64,000 nucleotides of DNA, taken from Nitrososphaeria archaeon (GTDB lineage: Archaea > Thermoproteota > Nitrososphaeria > Nitrososphaerales > JAAOZN01). Below are positions 19,924 through 34,183 of the stretch, in pieces. The notes beneath the pieces were generated by a model. The model had not been told where the DNA came from, did not search any database, and worked only from the letters and a program-made list of their open reading frames with translations. The translations under genes and the position numbers were made by a program. Position 1 is the first letter of the stretch. Each line of letters starts with the position of its first letter. The stretch lies in NCBI GenBank assembly GCA_029775855.1, contig JARVJZ010000006.1, positions 1 to 64,000 on the forward strand. The letters run 5' to 3'.

Positions 19924-20289
19924 TTGTTATTCAACTATTGGATTGAGTTGCAGCAGTCAGCATCAAGAGTTCAAGAAGTATTAACGATTTTAGAGAATAT
20001 GGAGAAGGCTCTTGATGAAGCAGATAAATGGGTAAACGAAGCAAAACGAAGCCTACTCGGTTTTGCATCTGCAGAAGGGGAGAAGGCTTTGACCGAAGCG
20101 GTAAACGAAGCGAACGCAGCCGCACAAGAGAGGCTCGAAAAGGCGAAAATCGAGGCAGAAAAAGAGGCTGAGCAGATACTACAGCAGTCTAAAGGCGAGC
20201 TCACCAAATTAAGAGAGAAGATAGAGCACTCTATGGAGAAAGCTATCGAGTTGACTATGGATGCGATTCTCGGTGAAAAGATGCTTTGA
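19924..20289 (+). CDS. A/V-type ATP synthase peripheral stalk subunit H (G)
   Basis: Ala/Glu/Lys-rich coiled coil overlapping the start of subunit C. Confidence 0.7.
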   Translation: MLFNYWIELQQSASRVQEVLTILENMEKALDEADKWVNEAKRSLLGFASAEGEKALTEAVNEANAAAQERLEKAKIEAEKEAEQILQQSKGELTKLREKIEHSMEKAIELTMDAILGEKML

Positions 20290-21377
20290 AGGTTAGAGGA
20301 GAGCTGGCTGACAGCACATACCTAATGGCAAAATGCTTTGCAGAAAAAGGAATACTTCTACAGCGCGCGATGCTCGAAACCCTAGCCGAATCAAAGGGGC
20401 TTGAGGACCTTGTTGGTAGGCTTAAGGGCACACCCTATAATGAGGCGGTTTCAAGAATCACCAGACCATACACCTCAGATAAGCTAGAGATGGCTTTCAG
20501 AGAGCATTTAGCGTCAACACACTACTCACTTATCAGAGTCTCACCTAGAAACTCATTTTTAACCGCATACTACAACAAGCACCTAATCTGGAACCTTAAG
20601 ACAATAGCGAAAGGTAAAGCGCTAGGCTTAACCTATGAAGAGATAGCTTCGAAAGTTAACTTATATGCTGAAGAACTTATCGAGAGAAGAAACTTAATCG
20701 TCAAGGCGCTAACCGCACCAGATCTACCAAGCTTAGTACAGACATTAGGTAAAACAGAATTCAGCCAAGAAATAGCTAAAGCAGCCCAACTCTACAGCGA
20801 AAAAGGAGATCTAAGGATATTTGACACATATCTCGACAAAGCATTCTACACACACCTACTCACAGAATACAATAAGTTAAGCCGAAGAACCATCTACTTA
20901 AAACGCCGCCCAATAAGCGAGCAAGCGAACGTCAGACCGCTGGTTTCAGTAGATATAGATGCATATAACATCCTAAGTGCGCTTAGAGCCAAAGTCTGGG
21001 AACTTACCGCACCACAGACACGCGAGCTAGTGATTGAAGCAGAGTTTAACTTGACGCAAAAGAAGCTCAACTTCATAATAGGTGCACCAAACCTTAACGA
21101 AGCCCTAAAGAAGGTTGCTGAGACACCATACGGCAAACTTATACCACCCGGCGTAGTAGGAGAAGAAGCTATACGTAAACTTGAAAACGAGTTCGAAATA
21201 TACATCTACAAGCAAGCTCTAAAAGCGTTTACTTGGCAGATTTCAGGCTTAGGGGTTGCCTTAGCTTTAATCAAGTTAAAGGAGGCTGAGGTTAGAAACC
21301 TATCTGCTTTAGCCTTCGGTGTGGAGCAAGGGCTTTCTGCTAAAGAAGTTATGTCAAAGATGACCTTCTTATCTTAG
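20286..21377 (+). CDS. atpC: A/V-type ATP synthase subunit C
   Basis: L.GTPY, DTYLDKAFY, IDAYNILSALR, KEAEVRNL. Confidence 0.88.
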   Translation: MKVRGELADSTYLMAKCFAEKGILLQRAMLETLAESKGLEDLVGRLKGTPYNEAVSRITRPYTSDKLEMAFREHLASTHYSLIRVSPRNSFLTAYYNKHLIWNLKTIAKGKALGLTYEEIASKVNLYAEELIERRNLIVKALTAPDLPSLVQTLGKTEFSQEIAKAAQLYSEKGDLRIFDTYLDKAFYTHLLTEYNKLSRRTIYLKRRPISEQANVRPLVSVDIDAYNILSALRAKVWELTAPQTRELVIEAEFNLTQKKLNFIIGAPNLNEALKKVAETPYGKLIPPGVVGEEAIRKLENEFEIYIYKQALKAFTWQISGLGVALALIKLKEAEVRNLSALAFGVEQGLSAKEVMSKMTFLS

Positions 21378-23425
21378 GACTCCAACTCTATCTTGACATA
21401 TGTCGTCTCTGGCGCGATCTTAGTAAAGGGTCTGCCTGTGCCCTCGTAGAACTTTGTAAACCACTCGTATAGATGAAGCCTTATGTCTTGTATATAGACG
21501 ATCAAGCCTTCAAGCGCTACAACACCAAGGTTGCCTATTATCCAGATAGGTAGCCCCATTAGGCCGAGGCTTAAGGTCATCGTCACCGCAAACATCAGTG
21601 CTGCGTGAACTAAGAGTAGAATTCCAAGTCGAGCGTAGCTTATAGTGTTGGCGAGGAATTCAACTAGCCTAAGTAGGAACTCGACTATGCCGAAGATTAG
21701 ACCCATAAAGGGGCTCTCCTTTTCACCGTGCCCCTTCGCCAATATCCCTTCTAGAGGTTTACCTATCACTATCCAAGCTGCAGCGGCGACGGTAACTGGA
21801 AGGGTCACACTTGATAGGGCGCTGGCTGTTACTGTAAATCCTAGTATATCTGATATGATGGGTACTCTGTTGTTGCTCGTTAAAACCTCAGCGAAGCTGT
21901 ATCCTGAGGCTATAAAAGAGAAGCTAAAACCGACACCAAACACATAAAGTAGTAGTGAAGGTATCTTAAGCGTGTAAAGCTCGACTTTACTCTCAGCCCT
22001 AAAACCTTTGATTACATCAAGCACCAACCCGATAAAGATGTGAATAGCGCCGATTAATATAGCAACTGAAAGGATAGTGCCAACAGCCTCCGTGTTGAAA
22101 CCACCATGCTCAACTAAGTGTATGATCTGGATACGCTTGAAGAAGCCGCCAACAGCAGGCAAATTTCCTAACTCTAAACCGAAGCCTTCGCCGACCAACG
22201 CACCTACTACAGTAGCAGCAGCCCCAGCAGCCATTATTATCTCACCCCAGTGTTTAAGCGATGGGCTTCCTCTAATCTTAAGCATAAGACCTAAGATGAA
22301 GAGTAGCAGACCTTGCCCGAAGTCTCCGAACATCATACCGTAGAAGATGGGGAAGATGAAGGCAATAAGAGGTGTTGGGTCAACATCACCGCTCTTCGGA
22401 GCGCCTTGAGTCAATGTAATGTTTTCGAACGGTTTTATAGGCCTCTTGTTGCTCATAAGAGTGGGGGGGTTGGAGTGCTCCTCCTCAAAGAAGATTAGAT
22501 AAGATGGATACATCTGTTTAAATTCTTCAAGGTTTCTTAAAGGCAGATAACCTTCTATAACAGCGAACCTCTTAAGGTCTCCGGCCTTTCTGAGTTTAGA
22601 GAGTGTTGTGTATGCTATCTGCGCTGCTTCTCTTAGTGAAAGCAGTTTGGTGCTTGACTCAACTTTGACTGCTTCCAGCTTGGATTCACATTCGGCTAGT
22701 GAGCGTTCGGCTTCTGCTAACCGTTCTACAACTACCTTGTAAGCGGAGGCTGGGTTTTGAGGTAAGTCTTGAGGTATCAGAAAGGGCTTAACTTCAAAGC
22801 TACGAAGCACCTTATCAACTTTATCAGCATCAGACTTCACACCAACAATCAGTATAGCACTGTTATTCTTCGTTAAAGGACATTCGATGACAACCACATC
22901 GGTCAAGCTGCGCCTTATCTCAGCGACATCTTTGGTAGCTGCTACAGCAAATACAGCGTGGAACCTTTTTAACCTTGAAAATAATTCCAAATCTATTGAA
23001 AACTGCTGAATAGTGTAAAGAGCGGCTTTAAGAGCTTCGTAATCAGATACTTTCTTACGGATTCGTGTAGCATCATCAAGTATAGAAGACAAGTGCTCTA
23101 TGATTGGTGTTGCCTCAACCTCTAGCTTCTCGATGAGGTCGTGCCAGTCTCGAGCAGTCTTAACTTCTTTTTCGATTTTATAGCCTTTCTTTAACACTTC
23201 AATTACATTAGGTTCAAGGGCTATGCTTAGCTTCTTCACAAGGTCGTCAAGGTTTGCAAAGAGTTTAAACGCCCTACCATTCAACTCACTCAAATATGGG
23301 TCAGAAACTGATGACTCTGGCTGTTCAGGATGAAACCAGCCAAACTTAAAAAGGCTTCTAAGGCAATCATTAAGCTCGCTCCTAGGCAGCAGAAGTGTAA
23401 CTTTAGTGAGTGATTCTACACCCAC
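21374..23425 (-). CDS. atpI: A/V-type ATP synthase subunit I (a)
   Basis: DPTP..FPIFYGMMFGDFGQG, NTISYARL (essential Arg), RLHLYEWFTKFYEGTGRPF. Confidence 0.95.
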   Translation of the reverse strand: MGVESLTKVTLLLPRSELNDCLRSLFKFGWFHPEQPESSVSDPYLSELNGRAFKLFANLDDLVKKLSIALEPNVIEVLKKGYKIEKEVKTARDWHDLIEKLEVEATPIIEHLSSILDDATRIRKKVSDYEALKAALYTIQQFSIDLELFSRLKRFHAVFAVAATKDVAEIRRSLTDVVVIECPLTKNNSAILIVGVKSDADKVDKVLRSFEVKPFLIPQDLPQNPASAYKVVVERLAEAERSLAECESKLEAVKVESSTKLLSLREAAQIAYTTLSKLRKAGDLKRFAVIEGYLPLRNLEEFKQMYPSYLIFFEEEHSNPPTLMSNKRPIKPFENITLTQGAPKSGDVDPTPLIAFIFPIFYGMMFGDFGQGLLLFILGLMLKIRGSPSLKHWGEIIMAAGAAATVVGALVGEGFGLELGNLPAVGGFFKRIQIIHLVEHGGFNTEAVGTILSVAILIGAIHIFIGLVLDVIKGFRAESKVELYTLKIPSLLLYVFGVGFSFSFIASGYSFAEVLTSNNRVPIISDILGFTVTASALSSVTLPVTVAAAAWIVIGKPLEGILAKGHGEKESPFMGLIFGIVEFLLRLVEFLANTISYARLGILLLVHAALMFAVTMTLSLGLMGLPIWIIGNLGVVALEGLIVYIQDIRLHLYEWFTKFYEGTGRPFTKIAPETTYVKIELES

Positions 23426-23478
23426 TTAATTCACCCTTTTAGGTTATCCGACTCCAATAGTAAGATAGAACACCTATT

Positions 23479-24141
23479 TTATGTCTTTTGCCGGAAATGG
23501 TTACTCTGAAGTATTGTGTATAATGCTGCTGCGAGTGCACCCTCTTCAGCAGCTTTAACAGAATTACCTCCAACGATAATAATTGAATCACCATCTCTAG
23601 GTTCTAAAAGAGACTTCAGAGAGTCCCAGAGGGGAATAAGATAACTCTTTTCAAGGTCAATTTCCGTATGAGGAAGTAAAAATCGCTTACCCAAATATAC
23701 TATTGTCGTCGCACCATCCGCCCCAGCCCTAACAGCAGCATCACGCTGCTCCAACCCAGACTTTACTTTAGACGCAGAATCTCGAATCAGCACCACATAA
23801 TTCCACTTACCTTGGCTTAAAGGGCCGGCATCTATAGGCTTTGGTGGTGTAAGCATTTTAAGGAGGCTTCTGTGAATTAATTTGCCTGCATCGGTCAATT
23901 TGCATCCACTACGCTCTACTTTAATAAGGCTACGCTCTTGAAGTCTGTTCAGCATCGTCCTAACCGAACCCTCACCTAGCTGAAGAATTCTTGCGATCTT
24001 CTTCCTACCTATAGGCGTATCCTCACCGAGCAAGAATATCAGCTTCAATATATCAACTACTTCAAAAGTTGGTTTTGGACCTATAGGTTTCTCTAAAAGT
24101 TCAAGAAGCGTCTTTAAAGAGTTAAGTGGCTTAGTCTGCAT
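23479..24141 (-). CDS. wHTH transcription regulator with DUF4443/DUF2111-like C-terminal domain
   Basis: IGRKKIARILQLGEGSVRTML HTH; GLEQRDAAVRAGADGATTI. Start set to ATG 24141. Confidence 0.8.
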   Translation of the reverse strand: MQTKPLNSLKTLLELLEKPIGPKPTFEVVDILKLIFLLGEDTPIGRKKIARILQLGEGSVRTMLNRLQERSLIKVERSGCKLTDAGKLIHRSLLKMLTPPKPIDAGPLSQGKWNYVVLIRDSASKVKSGLEQRDAAVRAGADGATTIVYLGKRFLLPHTEIDLEKSYLIPLWDSLKSLLEPRDGDSIIIVGGNSVKAAEEGALAAALYTILQSNHFRQKT

Positions 24142-24181
24142 CCGTATAAAGAGTGTTAAGGATGTTGAAAAACTTGTTGGC

Positions 24182-24676
24182 TTATCTTCCAGCCGGCTTA
24201 CGCAGATTAGGGTAGTTCGATGTATCTTCGTAGAGCCAAGCCAGTATATCACCTTGCTTTATCATGTATTGGTCTGCGGCTGTTTCCCCTATTGTCCATT
24301 CACCTTTCTCTTTATCGAATCTCCACCATATCCAGTAGTGCCCTTTTTGAACTACCTTTGTCCCGACACCATCTATACCATTAACGAAGACGCCCATATC
24401 ACTTCCAAGATACTCCACAGATCGGCTAACCTTTAGAGTAGCGTTCAAAAGAGAAGAGCCTATTGGAAGAAGGGTGTTATTATGCCAAACCAAACTACCA
24501 TTACCATAATCTATCAGCAAGTCAACTTCAAAAGCAACACCCCTTAACTCACTTAAAACATAATTATAGCGGCTCTTAACATCAATGCTATCAAGATAAA
24601 AGTAGACAGAAAGGCCACTACTTAACACAAGAAGGATCAAAAGGACAACCGATAGAGCGGAGAGACCTTTCTTCAA
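24182..24676 (-). CDS. Membrane-anchored DUF4430 (transcobalamin-like C-terminal) protein, CbrS-like
   Basis: N-terminal TM helix; IDYGNG...GVFVNGIDG...YWIWW...AADQYMIKQGDILAWLY. Confidence 0.75.
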   Translation of the reverse strand: MKKGLSALSVVLLILLVLSSGLSVYFYLDSIDVKSRYNYVLSELRGVAFEVDLLIDYGNGSLVWHNNTLLPIGSSLLNATLKVSRSVEYLGSDMGVFVNGIDGVGTKVVQKGHYWIWWRFDKEKGEWTIGETAADQYMIKQGDILAWLYEDTSNYPNLRKPAGR

Positions 24677-25225
24677 CTACTTCACCTTCAACACTTGAAC
24701 ACTGAGCAGATTTGAAACAAGAGGAACCAACTTAGGAGGAAAGAAGGAGAAAAGAACAAGGTTAGAAGCTTGATGAAGCAGACCCAGAGGAACAGGAAAG
24801 TTCATAGTAAGAACACCAACCAACACCCCAGGCCAAAGAGTATTTGTAAAAAGAACACCGCTCACAGCATTAGTCAGCAGATCATAGCTCAAAGTAGAGA
24901 GTAGCCCAATTAACCCAAGTTTAAGAGGATGAAGAATACCCCTCCTAGCACAGAAAGAACCAGCAGCGGCATAAAAGACTTCACAACAAGCCACAGAAAT
25001 CAGAACAACATAGGAGAAACCTAAGGGGTTAAATACACCATAGATCAGCCAAGAAAAAACAGCAACAACCACACCAAATCTGAAGCCAAGGGTATACGCA
25101 GAGATAAAGACTATAACATCCATAAGCTTGACATTCCAAATAGGGAAGAGCAGATAGTTTGTGGAAACCGCTAGCGCGGTAAAGAGGCATGCTGCTGCTA
25201 ACATCTTTGCGTTTTTTGCGAGCAT
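24677..25225 (-). CDS. ECF transporter S component, CbrT-like (putative cobalamin)
   Basis: About 6 TM helices; NVKLMDVIVF, NPLG, LSYDLLTN, HQASN; abuts the DUF4430 gene. Start set to ATG 25225. Confidence 0.6.
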   Translation of the reverse strand: MLAKNAKMLAAACLFTALAVSTNYLLFPIWNVKLMDVIVFISAYTLGFRFGVVVAVFSWLIYGVFNPLGFSYVVLISVACCEVFYAAAGSFCARRGILHPLKLGLIGLLSTLSYDLLTNAVSGVLFTNTLWPGVLVGVLTMNFPVPLGLLHQASNLVLFSFFPPKLVPLVSNLLSVQVLKVK

Positions 25226-25322
25226 CTTGGATGGATTATCCAACCAACTTATATTAAAACATATCTCCAAACTAAAATGAGAAGCGAAGGTCAACTTTTA
25301 TTAACAAGCAGTATACATTACT

Positions 25323-27398
25323 TTGCGTTTAAGGTTGGTGGGTGAACTGTTATCCGGTAGCAAAAGAGTAAAGGGAATATTCTCTGTCATCGCTTCTGCT
25401 AATAGGCTTGAAATTGTAAAGATCCTTAACGCTAAAGGGGCTCTTAGCTACTCTGAGTTAAAGAGTTTAGCCGGTTTCAAATCTAAAAAGGAGTCTGGGA
25501 AATTCGCTTATCATCTTAGAAAACTTGTAAAACAAGGTCTAGTTACCTTAAATAGGGCTGAGCGCAAATATATTATTACAAGTCTAGGTAGGCTTATACT
25601 TAACCTTAGTAGACAGATAGAGGAGCACGCGGTACTAGAGAGCGGAAAACTCTATGTGCGCACATCAAAACATAAGATAGAAGAGTTTAACACAAACAAG
25701 ATTACACAAAGCTTAGTCAAAGAAGGCGGCATGCCCCTTGACCTTGCTCAAAAGGTTACCGCTGAGGTTGAGAATAAGATCTACAAATTTCAAACAACAT
25801 ATCTGACCGCACCATTAATCAGAGAAATAGTTAATGCAGTGCTCATAGAGCAGGGGTTTGAAGAGTATAGACATAAGCTTACTAGGCTTGGTCTCCCAGT
25901 CCACGATGTTATTGAGTTAATCAGTAAAGTCGGCTTATCTGGAGAAGGAGTAGAAGTCTTAATGAGTCAGACCGCTCAAGCCGTCTTTTCAGAGTTCCTC
26001 CTTCTAAACCAGTTGACCAAAGATGTTGCTGACCTTTATTTGGCTGGGGATACGCACATCTCAAATCCAGGAAGATGGGGAATAGCTCCAGATACAGTTG
26101 TCGCCGATGCTGCTTGCCTTCAAACATCCAGCATAAATCCTAGTATGCGAATGCTTGCTGCGCCTAGACTTACATCTCCAACAAACTTTTCAGAAGCGCT
26201 TTCAATACATTCTGCTGCAACGATTCTCTTAGCTTCGGAGTGCAATACTGAGCTCTGCTGGCTTAGATTTGGTGAATATGTTGCGCGTGCTGCTAAGGAT
26301 ATTTCTGACAAACAGTTGATGGAAGATCTATATAGAGAGTTTGTGTTGATAGGCACAGTTTTGGGGCAGAGGGGTGCTAAGCCGAGGGTTTCATTGCACA
26401 TAGGGGAATGTGAGTTAACAGATTCAGATAGAACCAATAACATACTTGGGGGATATAGAAGGTATGTTGAGGCAACACCTCTACCCACTATAAACATAGT
26501 TTTACATGGCAGCATAGGCGATGATACATTAAATGAGATTTACAAGCTAGTGATGGTTGGAGGAAGCTTAGCCTTCTGTCCAAGCAAGCAGGACACTAAC
26601 TCATATTTAGGTTTGAGGCTAAGTGCAACATCCCAAGAAATTTCTACATTAAGCATGCTTCTCCACGGCTTCTCAATAAACTTACCTCGACTAGCTAGAG
26701 AGTCCCAAGAAGATGAAATGTATTTTAGGGCGAAGATGACTATACTTCTAAAAGACGCTCTAGCAGCGCTACAGACCAGAAGAGGAATAATTCTAGAGCA
26801 AGTGAGAAAAGGAGTGCTCCCTATAATAGAGAACAACACACAGACAGCAGCGTTAGAAGAAATTCCAACTATCCTAAACTTAGCTGGACTGTTAGAAGCG
26901 TCTCAAATACTGCTAAAAGATAAGAGAAACCAGAGCGCGTTAATGTCCATAGCTGAGAAGACGATAGAAACAGCGGTTAAAGGAACAAACACAGAAGAGG
27001 AGACAGCTGTGTCAATAGTGCCGGAGGAAGGATTAGCAAGACTAGCGGCACTAGATATTGAGAGATACGGTAAAACAGCTACAATATCATCTTTGGAAGA
27101 AGGGTATTCAGCGAGCCTCGAGCTTGATGCAGATAAACTAGACGAAGAAAAATTAAAACTAGCTGAAATATATTCAAGAAAATTGACCGGAGGATGCTCA
27201 ATATCGGTCAGAATAAACCCAAATATGAACATTGACGGTTTTAAGGAAATCCTCAACACACTCTCAACCAGATTTACATTCTTTAAGATAGGCTTAGACA
27301 TTAGCATCTGCAGAAACTGCGGAGCCAAGAACGCATCGACCGCAAGCCGCTGCAATGTCTGTAAATCGACACGATTGGCAAGGATGCAGATACTCTAG
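25323..27398 (+). CDS. ArsR-like wHTH + ATP-cone + degenerate class III ribonucleotide reductase (NrdD-like) fusion; probable transcription regulator
   Basis: RLEIVKIL...SYSELK...FAYHLRKL (wHTH); YVRTS...EEFNTNKITQSL...TAPLIREIVN (ATP cone); SINLPRLA, LAGLLEA and C-terminal CxxC..CxxC (NrdD body). Confidence 0.8.
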   Translation: MRLRLVGELLSGSKRVKGIFSVIASANRLEIVKILNAKGALSYSELKSLAGFKSKKESGKFAYHLRKLVKQGLVTLNRAERKYIITSLGRLILNLSRQIEEHAVLESGKLYVRTSKHKIEEFNTNKITQSLVKEGGMPLDLAQKVTAEVENKIYKFQTTYLTAPLIREIVNAVLIEQGFEEYRHKLTRLGLPVHDVIELISKVGLSGEGVEVLMSQTAQAVFSEFLLLNQLTKDVADLYLAGDTHISNPGRWGIAPDTVVADAACLQTSSINPSMRMLAAPRLTSPTNFSEALSIHSAATILLASECNTELCWLRFGEYVARAAKDISDKQLMEDLYREFVLIGTVLGQRGAKPRVSLHIGECELTDSDRTNNILGGYRRYVEATPLPTINIVLHGSIGDDTLNEIYKLVMVGGSLAFCPSKQDTNSYLGLRLSATSQEISTLSMLLHGFSINLPRLARESQEDEMYFRAKMTILLKDALAALQTRRGIILEQVRKGVLPIIENNTQTAALEEIPTILNLAGLLEASQILLKDKRNQSALMSIAEKTIETAVKGTNTEEETAVSIVPEEGLARLAALDIERYGKTATISSLEEGYSASLELDADKLDEEKLKLAEIYSRKLTGGCSISVRINPNMNIDGFKEILNTLSTRFTFFKIGLDISICRNCGAKNASTASRCNVCKSTRLARMQIL

Positions 27399-27453
27399 CC
27401 GCGTAAGCACAGCATTGAAGTTAGGAATTTATAATACGCACGTCAGTTCAGAC

Positions 27454-27559
27454 ACCAACTCAATAGTAGAGCCTCAGTAAAGGAGGCTTTGTCAAAAAAT
27501 CTTGATGAATAAAAGGAAGTACAGTCCCTTCTTAATCTAGGAGCTACTTATTGGGTGGT
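27454..27559 (+). promoter_or_regulatory. Structured 5' leader of nrdJ (candidate cis-regulatory RNA)
   Basis: TATA-like TTTATAAT at 27428-27435. Closing helix 27454-27469/27544-27559 encloses three hairpins. Confidence 0.45.
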
Positions 27560-29702
27560 ATTTAGGTTGACATCTGAGTCTCAAAGTGGTCTATCAACCG
27601 TTAGGAAGCGGGATGGTAGAATAGTACCATTTGATAGATTAAAGATAGCTAATGCGATTTACAAAGCTGCTAAATCTGTTAATGAAGGTGACCTGAATGT
27701 TGCTGACGAGCTATCATTAAAAGTTGTTAAAGTATTAGAGGAGAAGTATAAGAATGGCGGTATACCTACTGTAGAGGAGATTCAAGATGTAGTAGAAACA
27801 ACTTTGATTAATGACGGATACGCTAAGGTGGCTAAGGCCTACATTCTCTATAGGCAGAAGAGGGCTGAGCTTAGGCGTGCAAAAGCACTTCTTGGTGTTG
27901 AAGATGATCTAAAGCTTCCTATAAACGCCGTAACCATTTTGGCTGCCAGATACTTGCGCAGAGACGAAAACAGAAGGTTAATCGAGACGCCGAGACAGCT
28001 CTTCATGAGAGTGGCTAAGACAGTAGCTGAGGTTGACCTACTTTACAACCCTTCAGCTAAGGTTGAAGAGACCGCTAAGGAGTTCTTTGACATGATGGTT
28101 AACTTTGAATTTCTACCTAACTCGCCAACGCTTATGAATGCTGGGACAGAGTTAGGGCAGCTTTCTGCATGCTTTGTCCTTCCTGTAGAAGATTCTATTG
28201 ACGGCATATTTACCACACTAAAGCACGCAGCGTTAATACATAAGAGCGGCGGGGGGACTGGCTTCTCCTTTTCCAGATTAAGACCAAAAGGGGATGTTGT
28301 GAAGACTACAGGCGGCATCGCATCAGGCCCTATTTCTTTTATGACGGTCTTCGACGCAGCTACAAACGCGATTAAACAAGGTGGTAAACGCAGAGGAGCT
28401 AATATGGGTGTGTTGAGAGTAGATCATCCAGATATACTTGAGTTTATAACAGCAAAGGAGAAGGAGGGCAGGCTCTCGAACTTTAACATCTCAGTAGCTA
28501 TAACTGACAGATTTATGGATGCTGTCATAAACGGTGAAGACTATGATCTTATAAATCCACGCACAGGTCAAGCAGTGCAGAGGCTCAACGCCAGAGTAGT
28601 CTGGAATCTTATAATAGCAATGGCTTGGAAGAATGGTGAACCTGGTGTGCTGTTTATAGATAGGATAAATGCTATGCATACTGTTCCTCATGTTGGAACG
28701 ATAGAGGCTACGAATCCTTGTGGTGAGCAGCCGCTTATTCCTTACGAGTCATGTAATCTAGGTTCGATTAATTTAGCGAAGATGGTGGTTGATGGTAGAA
28801 TAGATTGGGATAAGCTTAGAAACACGGTTGAAAAGGCGGTGCACTTCTTGGATAATGTGATAGATGCTAATAAGTATCCTTTACCTGAAATTGAGAAGAT
28901 AACAAGGTTCGGGAACAGGAAGATCGGTTTAGGTGTTATGGGTTTTGCTGACATGCTGATAGAGTTAGGTGTGCCGTATAACTCTAAACCGGCTCTCAAA
29001 ATAGCTGAGCAAGTTATGAGGTTCATCGAAGAGGTGGCTGTGAATACTTCAGTAAAGTTAGCTGAAGAGAGAGGCTCATTCGCTAACTTTAAAGGGAGCT
29101 TGTGGGAGAAGCGTGGCTTTAAATGCATCCGTAATGCAACCTTAACAACTATAGCACCTACAGGCACGATAAGCGAGATTGCTGGCTGCTCCAACGGAAT
29201 AGAGCCGCTATTTGCAATTGTCTACACTAAGGCTGTGAGGGAGACATTAGGCGAAAACCTTACAATAGTCAACCCGCTATTTGAGAATGTGGCTATAGAG
29301 GAAGGTTTCTACAGCGAAGAACTTATGAAGAAGATAGCTTCTTCAACATCAATACAGCATATAGAAGAGATACCTGAGCATGTTAGGAGAATCTTTGTAA
29401 CTGCGCATGACATATCTCCAGAGTGGCACGTGAGGATGCAAGCAGCATTTCAGAAATATGTGGACAATGCTGTGTCGAAGACGATAAACTTTCCTCACGA
29501 TGCGAGTATGAACGACATAGAGCAAGCTTATCTGCTGGCATATAGGCTTGGATGTAAGGGTTTGACCGTCTACCGTGATAGGAGCCGGAGTGTGCAAGTC
29601 CTCACTACAAAGAAGGGAGAAGAAGGGGAACAAACTGAACTATTGAATATGGGCGCTAAGCCTATCGAATATTATGTGCACTGTGAATCTTGTGAATTGT
29701 GA
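27555..29702 (+). CDS. nrdJ: Adenosylcobalamin-dependent (class II) ribonucleotide reductase with N-terminal ATP cone
   Basis: [15 protein letters not shown] cone, [44 protein letters not shown] (no class I YY pair), C-terminal CxxC. Confidence 0.93.
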
Positions 29703-29711
29703 GGGTTCTCT

Positions 29712-30653
29712 TTACTCAAAATCTGGGTTTAATATTAAAGCAAGTAGCGCCGCTCTGAGATCCTTGCCGAGCTTCGCTTGTAGGAAGTATTTGGCTTGCG
29801 GGAGTCGGTCAACTTCGGGCTTTATCTCATCAACTCTGGGTAATGGGTGTAGAACTATGAGTTCTGATTTACCCCGCTCTAGTATTGAGGTGTCTACATA
29901 GTAAGAACCTTTAACTCTTTGATACTCTGTTGGATCTGGGAAGCGCTCTTTCTGTATTCTCGTAACATAGAGAACATCTAGTTCAGATATTACTTCATCT
30001 ATGCTTGTGTGTTGCGTCCAAGAATCTTTGCGTATGTCTAGAAGCGCATCTGATCTTAATCTAAGTTCTGGTGGTGAAATAAGTCTTATTTTGGTATCGT
30101 ATTTTGATAGGGCGTAGAGCAGAGAGTAGACGGTTCGGCTGTATCTTAGATCACCCATGATACCGACTGTGAGCCCATCGATTCTACCTTTTTCTCTATG
30201 AATTGTGTAGAGGTCAAGCATAGCTTGAGTAGGATGCTCTTCTGCACCTGAGCCTGCGTTTATAACTGGCTTCTCGGAAATAGATGCAGCGTATCTTGCG
30301 GCGCCTTCCCTAGAATGTCTTATGACTAGAACATCAACATACCCCGACACTACTATTACAGTGTCTGTAAAGTTTTCACCCTTCTCTACCGAAGAAGTCG
30401 AGGGGTCGGCTATACCGATGCTGCTGCCTCCTATAGAATACATCGCTGATTCGAAGCTTAGTTTTGTTCTGCTGCTTGGTTCATAGAAGATAAGCCCAAG
30501 TAGACGCCCTTCTGCTAGTTGGCGCCTTTCTTTATAGGGCATGTTTGAGATCTTTGTAGTTGCTTGGAATATTGTTTCTAATTCGCTTCTTCTGAAGTCT
30601 CTTATCGAAACTATGTCTCTTCCAAATAGTGGGTTCGGCAATCCACCTAGCAT
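29712..30653 (-). CDS. pyrB: Aspartate carbamoyltransferase catalytic subunit
   Basis: FYEPSSRTKLSFE, HPTQAMLD, TRIQKERF, HPLPR. Confidence 0.97.
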   Translation of the reverse strand: MLGGLPNPLFGRDIVSIRDFRRSELETIFQATTKISNMPYKERRQLAEGRLLGLIFYEPSSRTKLSFESAMYSIGGSSIGIADPSTSSVEKGENFTDTVIVVSGYVDVLVIRHSREGAARYAASISEKPVINAGSGAEEHPTQAMLDLYTIHREKGRIDGLTVGIMGDLRYSRTVYSLLYALSKYDTKIRLISPPELRLRSDALLDIRKDSWTQHTSIDEVISELDVLYVTRIQKERFPDPTEYQRVKGSYYVDTSILERGKSELIVLHPLPRVDEIKPEVDRLPQAKYFLQAKLGKDLRAALLALILNPDFE

Positions 30654-30847: not shown

Positions 30848-31318
30848 GTGGTCGCGTTGTCCGAAGAGCAGCTTATTGTGCGTAGAATAAAAGATGGGAC
30901 GGTAATAGATCACTGTGAGCCTGGCAGCGCTCTAAAGGTTTTAGCAGCACTAGGCATCAAAGAAGGCTTCACCAACCTTGTCACTATTGCGATGAATGTG
31001 CCAAGTAAGAAGCTCGGCAAGAAAGATATAATTAAGATAGCTGACCGCTTCCTCACACAAAGCGAGGCTAACAGAATAGCGCTAATATCCCCCCGTGCAA
31101 CACTCAACTTGATAAAAGATTATAGGGTTATAAGTAAGAGTAAAGTAGAGCTACCAGAAGCCTTCGTCAACATCTTCAGATGCCCAAATCCAACTTGCAT
31201 ATCCAACTCAAAAGAACCTATAACACCAGAGATCTTAGTAGCAAGAAATGAGCCACCACGGCTCACATGCAAGTATTGCTCAAGATTCTTCGACGTAAAC
31301 GAACTCATCTTAACCTAA
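30848..31318 (+). CDS. pyrI: Aspartate carbamoyltransferase regulatory subunit
   Basis: IKDGTVIDH, KKDIIKI, CPNPTCIS...CKYC. Confidence 0.96.
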   Translation: MVALSEEQLIVRRIKDGTVIDHCEPGSALKVLAALGIKEGFTNLVTIAMNVPSKKLGKKDIIKIADRFLTQSEANRIALISPRATLNLIKDYRVISKSKVELPEAFVNIFRCPNPTCISNSKEPITPEILVARNEPPRLTCKYCSRFFDVNELILT

Positions 31319-31607: not shown

Positions 31608-31931
31608 TTATGCAGCTTGACCTAGAATAAGTATAGCTATCACTATACCATATATAGCTATCGCTTCGCCTAACGCAGTGATGATAATTGCAGTAGTTCT
31701 TATCTCCGGTCTCTCCGCGCTTCCAGCAAGACCAGCTGCACCAGCTTTACTCACAGCCCACCCTGCTCCGATTGCTGCCGCTGCGAATGCTATTGCTGCT
31801 GAGAGGAATTTGAATATCAGTGGTTCAGATGCTGTTGGCTGTGCTTCTGCGGCTACTGCGAATGGTGTAAATGTAAGGCACAGAAGAAGCAACGAAGTAT
31901 ATAACCCTAACGAGAGTATATTGGGTTTCAA
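31608..31931 (-). CDS. atpK: A/V-type ATP synthase proteolipid subunit K (c) with N-terminal leader; H+-type
   Basis: AIGAGWAV..AGAAG...ERPE...ALGEAIAIYG; single ion-carrying Glu and no Na+ (Q...ET/S) motif. Confidence 0.92.
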   Translation of the reverse strand: MKPNILSLGLYTSLLLLCLTFTPFAVAAEAQPTASEPLIFKFLSAAIAFAAAAIGAGWAVSKAGAAGLAGSAERPEIRTTAIIITALGEAIAIYGIVIAILILGQAA

Positions 31932-31956
31932 GCTGTGTGGTGTGGTGATAAAGTTA

Positions 31957-31971
31957 GTATATAACTTTTTT
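31957..31971 (-). promoter_or_regulatory. BRE-TATA internal promoter for atpK
   Basis: Minus strand AAAAAAGTTATATAC about 26 nt upstream of the TTG start, consistent with a leaderless transcript. Confidence 0.55.
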
Positions 31972-31986
31972 GCCCAAGATAGAGTT

Positions 31987-32130
31987 TTAGCCCACTATTC
32001 TTCTGATTTCTTCAAGCGCCTTCTTTTTTACTGTTTCAACCTTCTCTTTAAGCTCGTTTTGAAGCTCTTGCTCTCTCTGTCTTACTTTATTTTGCGCCTG
32101 CTCAAATCTTTTTTTAACTATTTCACTCAT
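31987..32130 (-). CDS. 47-aa coiled-coil protein in the ATP synthase operon (not in ORF track)
   Basis: ATG 1 nt after the atpD stop, SD-like AGGTG upstream; MSEIVKKRFEQAQNKVRQREQELQNELKEKVETVKKKALEEIRRIVG. Confidence 0.75.
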   Translation of the reverse strand: MSEIVKKRFEQAQNKVRQREQELQNELKEKVETVKKKALEEIRRIVG

Positions 32131-32131
32131 C

Positions 32132-32782
32132 TTAAACACCTGACCTAGATTTCCTCAACTCAAGCACCTTTTTAATCTTTTTAAGCCTGACAAAATCTTC
32201 TCTCTCACGTTCATCCAAAGTTGAGGTGATGCTCCGCACAGCCTCCTCATACTGTGGGATTATGATAAATTCAAGCGCATTCAAGAGCCTTTGAGTCCTC
32301 TCAAGCTCACTAGCCAACCTAAAAATAGAGTTTTCAATCTCAGCAGCCTTCAGGATAGCGGGCAGCACTCGACGCATAGCAAAAAAAGCCTCATCTAGAG
32401 CTGAGTTGGTATCTGCAAAACCATAGCCAAGATTAAGAGACTTCTCATTGAACTGCAGCGCTGGCACAGTAACGTCGATTATCCTCTTTAAAGTCAGCGA
32501 GACCTCAGTGCTTTTAGGTATTGTCGCAGCAACCGATTCAACCGTCAGGGAACCTAATTTAAGGTAGGAGTCAAAGAGGGCTCTGTAGGCGTCTAATAGA
32601 GGCCCCCAAAGCTCTTCGCGAGCAGCACCAGCTTGCTCTATCAACTCATCTAGACGTTTAAGGAGGACCTCACGCTTATCCTCTAAGATCTTGTAAACTG
32701 ACCTCGCTACGCTTAGGCTTCTTTTTATACGTATTAGCTCAATCTTTGTAGGTAAGAACTTTCTGCCGAAGCTTACGGACAA
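32132..32782 (-). CDS. atpD: A/V-type ATP synthase subunit D
   Basis: PTKIELIRIK...ILEDKREVL; TQRLLNALE...LDEREREDFVRLKKIK. Confidence 0.95.
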   Translation of the reverse strand: MSVSFGRKFLPTKIELIRIKRSLSVARSVYKILEDKREVLLKRLDELIEQAGAAREELWGPLLDAYRALFDSYLKLGSLTVESVAATIPKSTEVSLTLKRIIDVTVPALQFNEKSLNLGYGFADTNSALDEAFFAMRRVLPAILKAAEIENSIFRLASELERTQRLLNALEFIIIPQYEEAVRSITSTLDEREREDFVRLKKIKKVLELRKSRSGV

Positions 32783-32788
32783 ATCTCT

Positions 32789-34183
32789 CTATGCTCCGCG
32801 TTCACTCCCCTTATAATACATCCTAACGTATTCAGACCTTATCTTCGTCAGTTCTCCTTCGGGAAGTGTTGAGAGCACTTCCCAAGCTAGCTTGAGTGTG
32901 TCATCGATAGTTCGGTTTTCATCGTATCCTTGTGAGAGGAACTTCTGCTCGAAGACATCTCCGTAGTGGAGGTACTTGAGGTCTATGCTTGTCAGACTCC
33001 CTCTACCCACAATTTCAACAAGTGCACGCAATTCTTGAACTCTTGCATAAGCGTCGTAAAGCTGGTTGCTCACTTCCATATGGTCGTCTCTAGTCTTTCC
33101 TTTACCTACACCGTCCTTCATAAGTCTGCTTAAACTCATCAGCACACCTACAGGCGGGTAAATCCCCTTTCTGAATAGGTCGCGTGAAAGCACTATCTGC
33201 CCCTCAGTGATATATCCTGTAAGATCGGCGATAGGATGAGTTATGTCATCACTTGGCATACTTAAGATCGGCATCTGAGTTATACTACCCTTCTTGCCCT
33301 TTATCCTACCAGCACGCTCATAGTTAGTCGCGAGATCTGTGTATAGGTAACCTGGATAACCCTTACGCCCAGGAACCTCCTCTCTAGCTGCGCTGATTTC
33401 TCTAAGAGCCTCAGCGTAGTTGGTCATATCAGTCAATATGACCAACACATGCATCCCTAAGTCGAATGCAAAGTATTCAGCTGTAGTTAAAGCAACACGC
33501 GGTGTTATTATTCGCTCTATAGCTGGGTCATCAGCTAAATTAAGGAAGAGGCAGCTTCTCTTTATAGCCCTACTCTCCTCCAGCGATCTCCGGAAGAAAC
33601 TAGCTTCGTGATGCTGCACACCTATGGCAGCGAAAACAACCGCAAAGTCTTCACCATAAACCGTAGCTTGCCTAGCGATCTGCGCCGCCAACATGCTATG
33701 TGGCATACCAGCGCCTGAAAAGATGGGTAGCTTCTGCCCCCTTGTGAGCGAGAGCATACCGTCTATCACAGAGATCCCAGTCTGTATGAAGTCTGTTGGA
33801 TATTCACGCTGCTCAGGGTTTATAGGCGAGCCGTTAACATCTCTGAAGTCTTCGCCAACTGGGTCAGGAAGACCATCTATGGGTCTGCCTAAGCCGTCGA
33901 AGACTCTACCTAATAGTTCGCTTGATACTGGTATCTCCATCGTCTTGCCTAGAAAGCGGGCTTTGGTTCCTACAACAGATAGCCCTCTGGTTCCCTCAAA
34001 GACTTGAATAACTGCTCTTCCACCACCTACCTCAAGCACTTTACCCAGCCGCTTTTCACCAGATGGTGTCTCGATCTCCACCAGCTCATCATATGCAGCC
34101 CTTGTTACACCTTGCATAATAAGTAGGGGTCCTTTGATTTCTTCTACCTTAGTATATTCTACGCCGCCTACACCTTTAGACAA
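32789..34183 (-). CDS. atpB: A/V-type ATP synthase subunit B
   Basis: [50 protein letters not shown]. Confidence 0.97.

Follow-up and report, generated by a model that had tools for sequence, protein, structure and literature searches.

A catalytically disabled NrdD fused to a winged helix is a probable regulator of ribonucleotide reductase genes in Nitrososphaerales, beside a candidate corrinoid-uptake module that appears to be controlled separately

The window analysed here is a stretch of 64,000 nucleotides (positions 1 to 64,000 of the forward strand of contig JARVJZ010000006.1, assembly GCA_029775855.1) from a Nitrososphaeria archaeon of the order Nitrososphaerales, and our subject is the divergent five-gene arrangement at 23,479 to 29,702 within it. 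Rightward lie a gene for a fusion protein, made up of a winged helix-turn-helix (wHTH), an ATP-cone and a domain like that of the class III ribonucleotide reductase (RNR) NrdD, and then nrdJ, which encodes a B12-dependent class II RNR. Leftward lie genes for an S component of the energy-coupling factor (ECF) type, a membrane-anchored DUF4430-like protein and a DUF4443 regulator. All five appear in the list of open reading frames (ORFs) where a preliminary description of this DNA had placed them. That description proposed that the locus couples deoxynucleotide (dNTP) status to B12 supply through the fusion protein. Our analysis favours instead two neighbouring, separately controlled modules, with a probability of about 0.55 for this overall model. 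Judged from its sequence, the fusion protein is probably a DNA-binding regulator of RNR genes; that it senses nucleotides, as analogy would have it, falls a little short of even odds, and for the import of corrinoid by the leftward module the gene and protein sequences put the chances about level.

The domains of the fusion protein were identified with Pfam, in which HTH_20 (28.0 bits; cut-off 27), DUF7347 (35.5 bits; cut-off 27.6), ATP-cone (36.8 bits; cut-off 25.8) and NRDD (71.3 bits; cut-off 26.2) were matched; the score against the NCBIfam NrdD model TIGR02487 was 58.5 bits, far under its cut-off of 326.35. A search for the family gave 5214 matches among 8000 scored candidates, and an alignment of 19 members (A1) was the basis of the column checks. 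When the family was compared with Escherichia coli NrdD by hhalign (probability 98.6%, E 7e-16), C175 of the E. coli enzyme fell opposite T258 and the thiyl-radical cysteine C384 opposite T425. No cysteine was present in either of these catalytic columns in any of the 19 rows. The glycyl-radical motif RVxGY was likewise absent, all 19 proteins ending 11-20 residues past the Zn ribbon. The numbering of E. coli NrdD used here was checked (C175, C384, G681 in RVCGY at 678-682, and Zn cysteines 644, 647, 662 and 665).

Other features of NrdD are kept. The four Zn-ribbon cysteines of the fusion protein (C663, C666, C677 and C680) are invariant in the alignment, and the GDIHISN and NLPR motifs of class III NrdD are retained in the family. 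This C-terminal, NrdD-type ribbon is the sole Zn ribbon of the protein; the N-terminus is of the HTH_20/DUF7347 type and not a Zn ribbon of the NrdR type. The AlphaFold2 (AF2) model had a mean pLDDT of 69.6, with values of 80-95 across most of the barrel, and its best PDB matches in Foldseek were class III RNRs (E 9e-17 to 1e-12), among them ATP-cone-bearing ones aligned across some 720 columns. As modelled, then, the fusion protein is an ATP-cone NrdD in fold and domain order, with a wHTH added and the radical chemistry taken away, and the term 'dead RNR' of the preliminary description proves apt. Conservation is uneven along the protein: the mean majority-residue fraction of the 19 members was 0.88 for the wHTH, 0.87 for the ATP-cone and 0.51 for the barrel. 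A tblastn search of phages with the fusion protein gave four weak NrdD matches, which were not used.

Of 61 genomes of the same order, 58 have the fusion gene, and these cover all 20 families and all 42 genera sampled; in the other three (G008, G030, G035) it was not found. Gene neighbourhoods were compared in a close set of 80 loci from species-representative genomes, with 41-47% identity to the fusion protein. In 73 of the 80 the fusion gene is followed immediately by nrdJ in the same orientation, and these are all of the 73 assessable loci, the remaining seven ending within 406 nt after the fusion gene. The intergenic distance ranged from 54 to 981 nt and was mostly 150-350 nt (56 measurable loci). 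Three out of eight sampled partner NrdJ proteins carried an ATP-cone; five had none and consisted of lgN, barrel and TSCPD.

These five, with TSCPD at the C-terminus, belong to ammonia oxidisers (loci L002, L008, L010, L027 and L046), and at the fusion-nrdJ locus of such lineages the regulator holds the only ATP-cone seen. The nrdJ ORFs of some other relatives (L020, L034, L037, L030 and L040) were much longer than usual (1149 aa in L020), or else aligned to the NrdJ of the window only from about residue 206, some 1 kb after the fusion gene, which suggests inteins or insertions.

In the genome to which the window belongs, the RNR catalytic genes are two, both nrdJ, whose products are 60% identical, and no second NRDD-family gene was found in it. 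The NrdJ of the window scored 980.7 bits with NF006417 (cut-off 961), 753.1 bits with TIGR02504 (cut-off 399.95) and 92.4 bits with Pfam ATP-cone. The second (706 aa; C2:172210-174330, minus strand; locus L081) scored 989.2 and 759.7 bits with the same two NCBIfam models; it also has an ATP-cone, and no fusion gene stands beside it. The genome contains three ATP-cones, and since these are accounted for by the two NrdJ and the fusion protein, it has no NrdR.

Inspection of the close loci brought out a palindrome, GTCAA-N6-TTGAC, that is enriched about 40-60-fold in the fusion and nrdJ promoters, a figure to be read with the reservation that the motif was derived by eye from the loci first counted and that related loci are not independent. 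At ≤1 mismatch, the 10.1 kb that precede the fusion gene contain 16 matches and the 12.9 kb between the fusion gene and nrdJ 33, compared with 30 in the 852 kb that make up the rest of these loci. Control patterns (spacers of 3-10 and three other half-site arrangements) gave 0-6 matches in the target regions and background counts of 14-75. Two patterns with N5 were exceptions in the target regions: the N5 palindrome (1 + 13 matches), a Nitrosopumilaceae-like variant, and an everted N5 pair (5 + 12), which reflects adjacent sites. The soil-clade loci have GTTAA-ATACNT-TTGAC as the site before the fusion gene, with the TATA box of the fusion promoter inside it. Before nrdJ, one site lies about 25 nt past the fusion stop codon, and frequently there is another some 22 nt ahead of the TATA box.

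The two sites of the window, candidate operators O1 and O2 (Table 1), occupy two short intergenic regions. O1 encloses the TATA-like TTTTATTAA, 18 nt before the TTG start of the fusion gene, and sites of its type are shared by the same-genus loci L115 and L116 and also by L001. O2 abuts the TATA-like AATAAAA (27508-27514), 49 nt before the GTG of nrdJ. Sites over TATA box or transcription factor B recognition element positions fit repression by promoter occlusion, and by analogy with archaeal repressors the placement of O1 and O2 fits such repression, together with autorepression. O1 and O2 are two of 38 matches to the pattern in the whole genome, and ten shuffles gave 35-63, so that there is no overall enrichment. 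Because of this, and because the second nrdJ has no such site upstream, no regulon can be predicted beyond the fusion gene and the adjacent nrdJ.

Other sequences were seen around these promoters. The output of a k-mer motif discovery run was set aside, as it was the tRNA T-arm sequence of a tRNA-like element upstream of the fusion gene. In about 11 soil-clade loci, L007, L022, L025, L028, L031, L032 and L040 among them, such a tRNA-like sequence (T-arm CCGGTTCAAATCCGG) immediately precedes the fusion promoter. At 27450-27490, between the fusion stop codon and O2, the window has GAGCCTC-N7-GAGGCTT, an inverted repeat with a T-rich stretch after it, which may be a terminator-like hairpin of the fusion transcript.

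Distant relatives were sought with residues 1-200 of the fusion protein (wHTH and ATP-cone) among 1.84 billion representatives. It returned 824 proteins at E≤1e-3, of which 383 passed E≤1e-10 and 126 passed E≤1e-30; many are 740-800 aa long. Eight clusters were looked up, and the source names of three were Jordarchaeia/Freyarchaeota and Promethearchaeota, that is, Asgard archaea. Reading of these long forms by eye indicated a C-terminal tail resembling the glycyl-radical domain, with S, K or A at the place of the motif glycine and T, N or S at the position of the thiyl cysteine. In a distant set of 80 metagenome loci of the long form, 53 were assessable (at least 1.5 kb downstream), and 28 of these (33 of the 80 overall) have a genuine nrdD immediately after the fusion gene, in the same orientation; nrdJ was downstream in two of the 80. 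Pfam NRDD spanned positions 1-560/562 in all seven downstream nrdD products tested. A glutaredoxin-like gene intervenes in one locus, and the downstream nrdD of L146 carries RVTGY.

The distant loci also served as an independent test of the palindrome derived from the close set. Seven matches fell in the 20.9 kb before the fusion gene and six in the 44.1 kb after it, as against 18 in the other 730.5 kb, so that the palindrome is enriched in this set too. Tandem perfect palindromes, 44-45 bp apart, were present in L151, L159 and L170. Since the family adjoins nrdJ in the close loci and nrdD in about half of the assessable distant ones, it accompanies whichever RNR class the host uses, which is the signature of an RNR-specific regulator. 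The arrangement in the distant loci suggests that the fusion family arose via duplication of an adjacent nrdD.

The mechanism that we propose for the rightward module is as follows. The fusion protein would descend from an ATP-cone-bearing NrdD that gained an N-terminal ArsR-like winged helix and lost its radical chemistry. It is most likely a dimeric transcription factor binding GTCAA-N6-TTGAC, which would repress its own gene from O1, around its own TATA box, and control the RNR gene from O2, at the TATA box of nrdJ. Its binding to DNA would be tuned by nucleotides on the ATP-cone and perhaps also on the retained NrdD barrel. A bolder version is that the whole allosteric apparatus of an RNR was turned into a transcription factor. 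The barrel would then retain effector and substrate sites and the dimer interface, and the protein would read ATP, dATP and other dNTPs; it would have come from a duplication of nrdD in anaerobic archaea, have been kept after the switch to class II and be the archaeal counterpart of NrdR. We consider this version speculative and, taken as a whole, rather unlikely.

The leftward module was examined in the same manner. The regulator matched Pfam DUF4443 (85.6 bits; cut-off 27) and PH0730-like_N (58.3 bits; cut-off 30.2), and was matched along its full length by PDB entry 2p8t (PH0730; E 7.8e-18). For the DUF4430-like protein, AF2 gave a model (pLDDT 88.8) that consists of an N-terminal membrane helix and a beta domain. 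Its 18 PDB matches in Foldseek at E≤1e-3 were the beta domains of transcobalamin, haptocorrin and intrinsic factor, together with 3u7z, a bacterial putative metal-binding protein; the best was 5no0 (E 4.1e-5, TM 0.73 on the target), and the next folds to appear, from E 0.017, were ubiquitin-like. Pfam DUF4430 itself is given, in an excerpt of PMC4350170, as the C-terminal domain of transcobalamin-like proteins. Homologues of the S protein were found in 23 of the 61 relatives at E≤0.01, two of them weak, and its look-alikes in the atlas were ECF S clusters (score 0.95). The DUF4430-like gene adjoins the S gene in 20 of 20 loci, and the DUF4443 regulator is alongside in nine of them.

A second palindrome, GG(C/A)TGGA-N3-TCCA(G/T)CC, starts the S/DUF4430 operon in 17 of the 20 loci at ≤3 mismatches, and it stands before the DUF4430 gene where that gene comes first. 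In the window it sits between a TATA-like box (25250-25259) and the ATG of the S gene at 25225, which, as had been assumed earlier, is the start of that gene. The peptide WLDNPSK, once taken for a conserved N-terminus of the S protein, was rejected, as it is this DNA palindrome that is conserved. The genome has three matches at ≤2 mismatches, the other two being inside ABC-ATPase coding sequence. The palindrome may serve the DUF4443 regulator as an operator, or it may form a hairpin in the leader. An Rfam scan of 23000-30000 at E≤1, riboswitch families included, gave no match.

The DUF4443 regulator family is present in 49 of the 61 genomes, ammonia oxidisers included, and is found within about 1 kb of cbtA in six of 21 CbtA-bearing genomes, all six being ammonia oxidisers, from three families (L128 in G015, and L135-L139 in G052, G043, G006, G048 and G041); G015 also has a cbtB-like small ORF. 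Near the DUF4443 regulators of ammonia oxidisers, a search for the S-operon palindrome at ≤3 mismatches gave nothing. A looser GGAT..ATCC core follows the TATA box in three of the six cbtA-linked loci and is a weak lead. Taken with the nearness to cbtA, it is a lead that DUF4443 proteins may be cobalt- or cobalamin-responsive regulators with a possible protein-based cobalt or B12 regulon. The literature search turned up no paper with the term 'DUF4443', and no function is on record.

The supply of B12 in the host was assessed from its genome (98.4% complete), in which CobD/CbiB, CbiC and CobS were not found and a PduO-type adenosyltransferase was present. Because both of its RNRs are B12-dependent and these markers of B12 synthesis are missing, the host needs corrinoid. 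EcfA-EcfA'-EcfT is encoded at C3:195252-197640, the CbiQ/EcfT match being at C3:195372-195944 (94.3 bits); the two ORFs beside it are presumably ABC ATPases, as named by eye from their translations. The S component and the transcobalamin-beta-like protein, with this EcfAA'T encoded elsewhere, would most likely import corrinoid, and the DUF4443 regulator would control their operon through the palindrome between the TATA box and the start codon. Across the 61 genomes, 21 had the S component without CobS, 31 had CobS without the S component, two had both and seven had neither, an anticorrelation that is inflated by kinship among the genomes. It recurs within family f14, where genus g14 has CobS without the module and genus g31 has the module in two of three genomes and no CobS. 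One of the two genomes with both is G003; the other, G057, is a dubious match with stop codons. The 'putative B12 uptake genes' of the preliminary description are thus plausible candidates for corrinoid uptake, to judge by the transcobalamin-beta fold and the missing synthesis markers.

A number of observations weigh against the two-module model, in both of its halves. On the side of the fusion protein, the wHTH part of the AF2 model has pLDDT values below 50 (residues 1-52 and 72-106). The ATP-cone has T114-S115 where canonical cones, that of the neighbouring NrdJ included, have K-R (V-R-T-S-(K/R) as against V-R-K-R-D-G). The K-R pair of ATP-cones contacts nucleotide phosphates, and with T-S in its place the fusion protein may or may not bind ATP or dATP. 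No RNR gene was found downstream in 23 of the 53 assessable distant loci. The GTCAA site, the derivation of which by eye was mentioned above, occurs at ≤1 mismatch in only 29 of 56 regions upstream of nrdJ and 16 of 63 upstream of the fusion gene, and is missing from the second nrdJ. On the leftward side, DUF4430 scored 15.2 bits on the protein of the window (cut-off 23.8) and ECF_trnsprt 20.0-20.4 bits on the S protein (cut-off 30.7). DUF4430 is matched by 11 of 19 homologues (best 4.4e-5), and of 20 S homologues 15 match ECF_trnsprt at E≤0.1 and nine match ECF-ribofla_trS; at family level, the two weak assignments hold. A profile of the S family against PDB sequences found no solved ECF S component, only chance pannexin matches (E 0.3). 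The predicted complex of the S component with the DUF4430-like protein scored 0.00 against a mark of 0.32 and was counted neither way. G003, as noted, has both CobS and the S module.

The remaining adverse points are those that bear on what the leftward module carries. It could handle something other than cobalamin (heme or another tetrapyrrole, cobalt or another vitamin), with B12 entering through a BtuCDF-like importer, an alternative that we hold to be unlikely, although it is the most serious of those considered. A complete importer of the BtuCDF/Fhu type, which could carry B12, is encoded in the genome (C1:6813-11244, L125: a 534-aa Peripla_BP_2 protein, a FecCD permease and an ABC ATPase), and from its sequence is a possible alternative importer of B12, heme or siderophores. 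A gene resembling SAM-dependent methyltransferases stands between its binding protein and permease. Nine of the 20 S homologues match the riboflavin S-component model ECF-ribofla_trS (best 9.9e-9), and the gene that otherwise recurs beside the DUF4443 regulators encodes a cobalt transporter and is not in itself a B12 gene. An ECF operon of L. sakei with transcobalamin-like alpha and beta proteins is reported as a heme importer in the part of bioRxiv 10.1101/864751 that we cite. Moreover, Nitrososphaerota other than the ammonia-oxidising archaea (AOA) are described in an extract of PMC13374868 as being without several vitamin pathways, and for this reason the opposite occurrence of the S component and CobS does not single out B12. 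Against these arguments, the solved look-alikes of the binding protein are, with the exception of 3u7z, all B12 binders; cobalt import would be of little use without corrin synthesis; and the module is anticorrelated with CobS even within family f14. Corrinoid therefore remains, on balance, our preferred substrate for the two-module model.

Whether the two modules are coupled was judged from the neighbourhoods and promoters of both. S/DUF4430 genes stood beside the fusion gene in none of the 80 fusion loci, and the fusion gene stood beside the S module in two of 20 S loci, both from the same genus as the window (G002 and G003), and in none of 17 outside that genus. The lack of conserved linkage that the preliminary description had named as a refutation therefore applies to the B12 genes, whose linkage was seen within one genus only, and does not apply to nrdJ. 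In family f10 the modules are 20-33 kb apart on one contig, and in other families they are unlinked. In an integrated model, the fusion protein, alone or with the DUF4443 regulator, would act from the 97-bp divergent region on the S/DUF4430 operon as well, and B12 import would be tuned to dNTP status. Such a model could call on the position of O1, 65-80 nt upstream of the S ATG and just beyond its TATA-like box. It could also call on the retention of the region, the arrangement and the site in the two same-genus genomes with L115 and L116, on the presence of both modules on one contig in f10, and on L001 (G010), where of the leftward genes only the DUF4443 regulator stands divergently to the fusion gene. 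Outside the genus, however, the 160 nt that precede S contain no GTCAA-N6-TTGAC. The S operon has its own palindrome in most of its loci, and neither gene set accompanies the other at large. We regard the integrated model as improbable, and the coupling of dNTP status with B12 through the fusion protein that was originally proposed was not supported. Because each module has its own palindrome, and because their adjacency is limited to one genus, we read them as separate, each with a regulator of its own; we treat the adjacency as a co-location of functionally related genes, for B12 import and for a B12-dependent enzyme, and not as one regulatory device.

The fusion protein might not primarily be a transcription factor at all, being instead an allosteric or scaffolding partner of NrdJ, or a nucleotide binder whose wHTH serves protein contacts. 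A partner of this kind would suit the five sampled NrdJ that have no ATP-cone and the retention of a whole NrdD barrel with many invariant residues, and the binding of DNA by the fusion protein is a prediction only. On the other hand, the wHTH is its most conserved part, and a palindrome of specific spacing marks the fusion and RNR promoters, or in the distant set the regions on either side of the fusion gene, in two independent sets and overlaps TATA boxes. In addition, a partner RNR that may be of class II or class III fits control at the level of the gene better than a conserved protein interface. A role at the protein level thus appears to us quite improbable, and the preferred reading is still that of a regulator of RNR genes. 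Lastly, that the fusion protein is an active class III RNR, as its above-cut-off Pfam NRDD match and source names such as 'anaerobic ribonucleoside-triphosphate reductase' would have it, can practically be dismissed, since none of the 19 members has a glycyl-radical motif or a catalytic cysteine and the NCBIfam NrdD equivalog scores are far under the cut-offs.

The features of the locus are listed in Table 1. The start of the DUF4443 regulator is most likely M38, because relatives align only from that residue.

Table 1. Features of the fusion/nrdJ locus and its surroundings (positions in the window)
Feature	Position	Strand	Remarks
DUF4443/PH0730-like winged-helix regulator	23479..24141	-	220 aa from M38; listed ORF runs to 24252
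Membrane-anchored DUF4430-like protein, transcobalamin beta-domain fold	24182..24676	-	164 aa; N-terminal helix 2-45
ECF-type S-component-like membrane protein	24677..25225	-	182 aa from ATG 25225; listed ORF 24677-25294
S-operon palindrome GGATGGATTATCCAACC	25229..25245		family consensus GGCTGGA-N3-TCCAGCC
Operator candidate O1 GTCAACTTTTATTAAC	25290..25305		GTCAA-N6-TTGAC type, 1 mismatch
Fusion protein	25323..27398	+	691 aa; TTG start
Fusion wHTH	25365-25637	+	aa 15-105
Fusion ATP-cone	25644-25892	+	aa 108-190
Fusion NrdD-like barrel without catalytic residues	25908-27287	+	aa ~196-655
Fusion Zn ribbon CxxC..CxxC	27309-27362	+	aa 663-680
Operator candidate O2 GTCAAAAAATCTTGAT	27491..27506		GTCAA-N6-TTGAC type, 1 mismatch
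nrdJ, adenosylcobalamin-dependent class II RNR with N-terminal ATP-cone	27555..29702	+	715 aa; GTG start
pyrB (presumed)	29712-30653	-	name from translation
pyrI (presumed)	30848-31318	+	name from translation

The two ORFs downstream of nrdJ, which we take from their translations to be pyrB and pyrI, form a syntenic context that is met again beside the regulator family: homologues of the pyrB ORF lie downstream in 15 of the 80 close loci and within the flank in 32 of the 80 distant loci. The block of RNR, pyr and uptake genes is flanked by A-type ATPase genes at 19924-23425 and 31608-34183, presumably those of subunits I and C upstream and of K, D and B downstream, as read from the translations. 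It thus interrupts an A-type ATPase cluster, and some of this gene order is seen again in L001 and other relatives.

The window comes from contig C6 of a 1.51-Mb genome in six contigs. Among runs X1-X14, several hot-spring metagenomes, not all of one study, contain the stretch 23400-29800 nearly whole, and a sediment metatranscriptome contains part of it. Because several hot-spring runs contain it, a hot-spring habitat is probable, and the organism is probably a non-ammonia-oxidising member of the phylum; a search for the AmoA family gave no match but, as its control matched nowhere either, carries no weight here. In the metatranscriptome library X8, 11 contigs, ten of them at least 99% alike, cover parts of all five genes. 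These contigs show neither strand, ends nor level, and DNA carry-over is possible, so that they are a weak hint of expression.

To our knowledge, the transcriptional regulation of archaeal RNR is largely unknown. The fusion family is a near-universal single-copy gene in an order that holds the AOA. Public records name it 'ArsR regulator' or 'anaerobic RNR', and the latter label would wrongly imply anaerobic dNTP synthesis in aerobes. What the analysis offers is a concrete predicted operator (GTCAA-N6-TTGAC) and, in evolutionary terms, a clear route by which an enzyme could become a pseudoenzyme regulator. If the bolder version above is true, the family would be the missing archaeal counterpart of NrdR across the sampled Nitrososphaerota order and the source-named Asgard lineages, and the regulator would supply the only ATP-cone of the system in many class II RNR lineages. 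The leftward module, for its part, is a candidate B12-uptake route in B12-auxotrophic Nitrososphaerota that do not oxidise ammonia, with the DUF4443 regulator as a candidate protein-based replacement for B12 riboswitches. Such a route would bear on the exchange of vitamins between these archaea and B12 producers.

Among known systems, the leftward module may be compared with ECF-CbrT, a cobalamin transporter. An S-component-like protein paired with a transcobalamin-beta-like extracytoplasmic protein is a likeness that it shares with ECF-CbrT and with Lsa1836-1840 of L. sakei, as far as the cited part of the report on the latter goes. It differs in that no alpha-domain partner was seen, in that the sequence of its S protein gave no match to a solved S component, and in its proposed control by a palindrome in the DNA and a winged-helix protein of the DUF4443 type, with no riboswitch match. 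The regulator resembles PH0730 (2p8t) over its whole length. The links of DUF4443 proteins to the ECF S/DUF4430 operon and to cbtA, plus the palindrome, are new leads.

The fusion protein shares with class III NrdD (PDB 9dca, 8p2s and 4coi) an ATP-cone, a ten-stranded barrel and a C-terminal Zn ribbon, in that order. Unlike these enzymes, it has no glycyl-radical loop, no thiyl cysteine and no second cysteine, and it has an extra wHTH; its distant relatives, moreover, are encoded beside genuine nrdD, as if each were the duplicated, disabled paralogue of its neighbour. A search of full-text literature, with subscription journals and supplements outside its scope, found no earlier description of a wHTH-ATP-cone-NrdD regulator, in agreement with the preliminary description.

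With NrdR, said to be 'rare in archaea' in the consulted portion of PMC9110341, the fusion protein has in common an ATP-cone joined to a DNA-binding domain and a tight linkage to the RNR genes of the host, whatever their class. The same portion places palindromic NrdR boxes at RNR promoters and at the promoter of nrdR itself, and the predicted palindromic boxes of the fusion protein are likewise at RNR promoters and its own. The differences are that the fusion protein uses an ArsR-like winged helix where NrdR has an N-terminal Zn ribbon, that it carries a dead NrdD barrel of 500 residues and a C-terminal Zn ribbon, that its ATP-cone has T-S for the usual K-R, and that its predicted box, GTCAA-N6-TTGAC, is unrelated. 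The functional likeness to NrdR that had been put forward at the outset is thus upheld in silico, the protein being RNR-derived, tightly linked to nrdJ and predicted to act on a palindrome at RNR promoters. We read the fusion protein as an archaeal analogue of NrdR, and not as its homologue.

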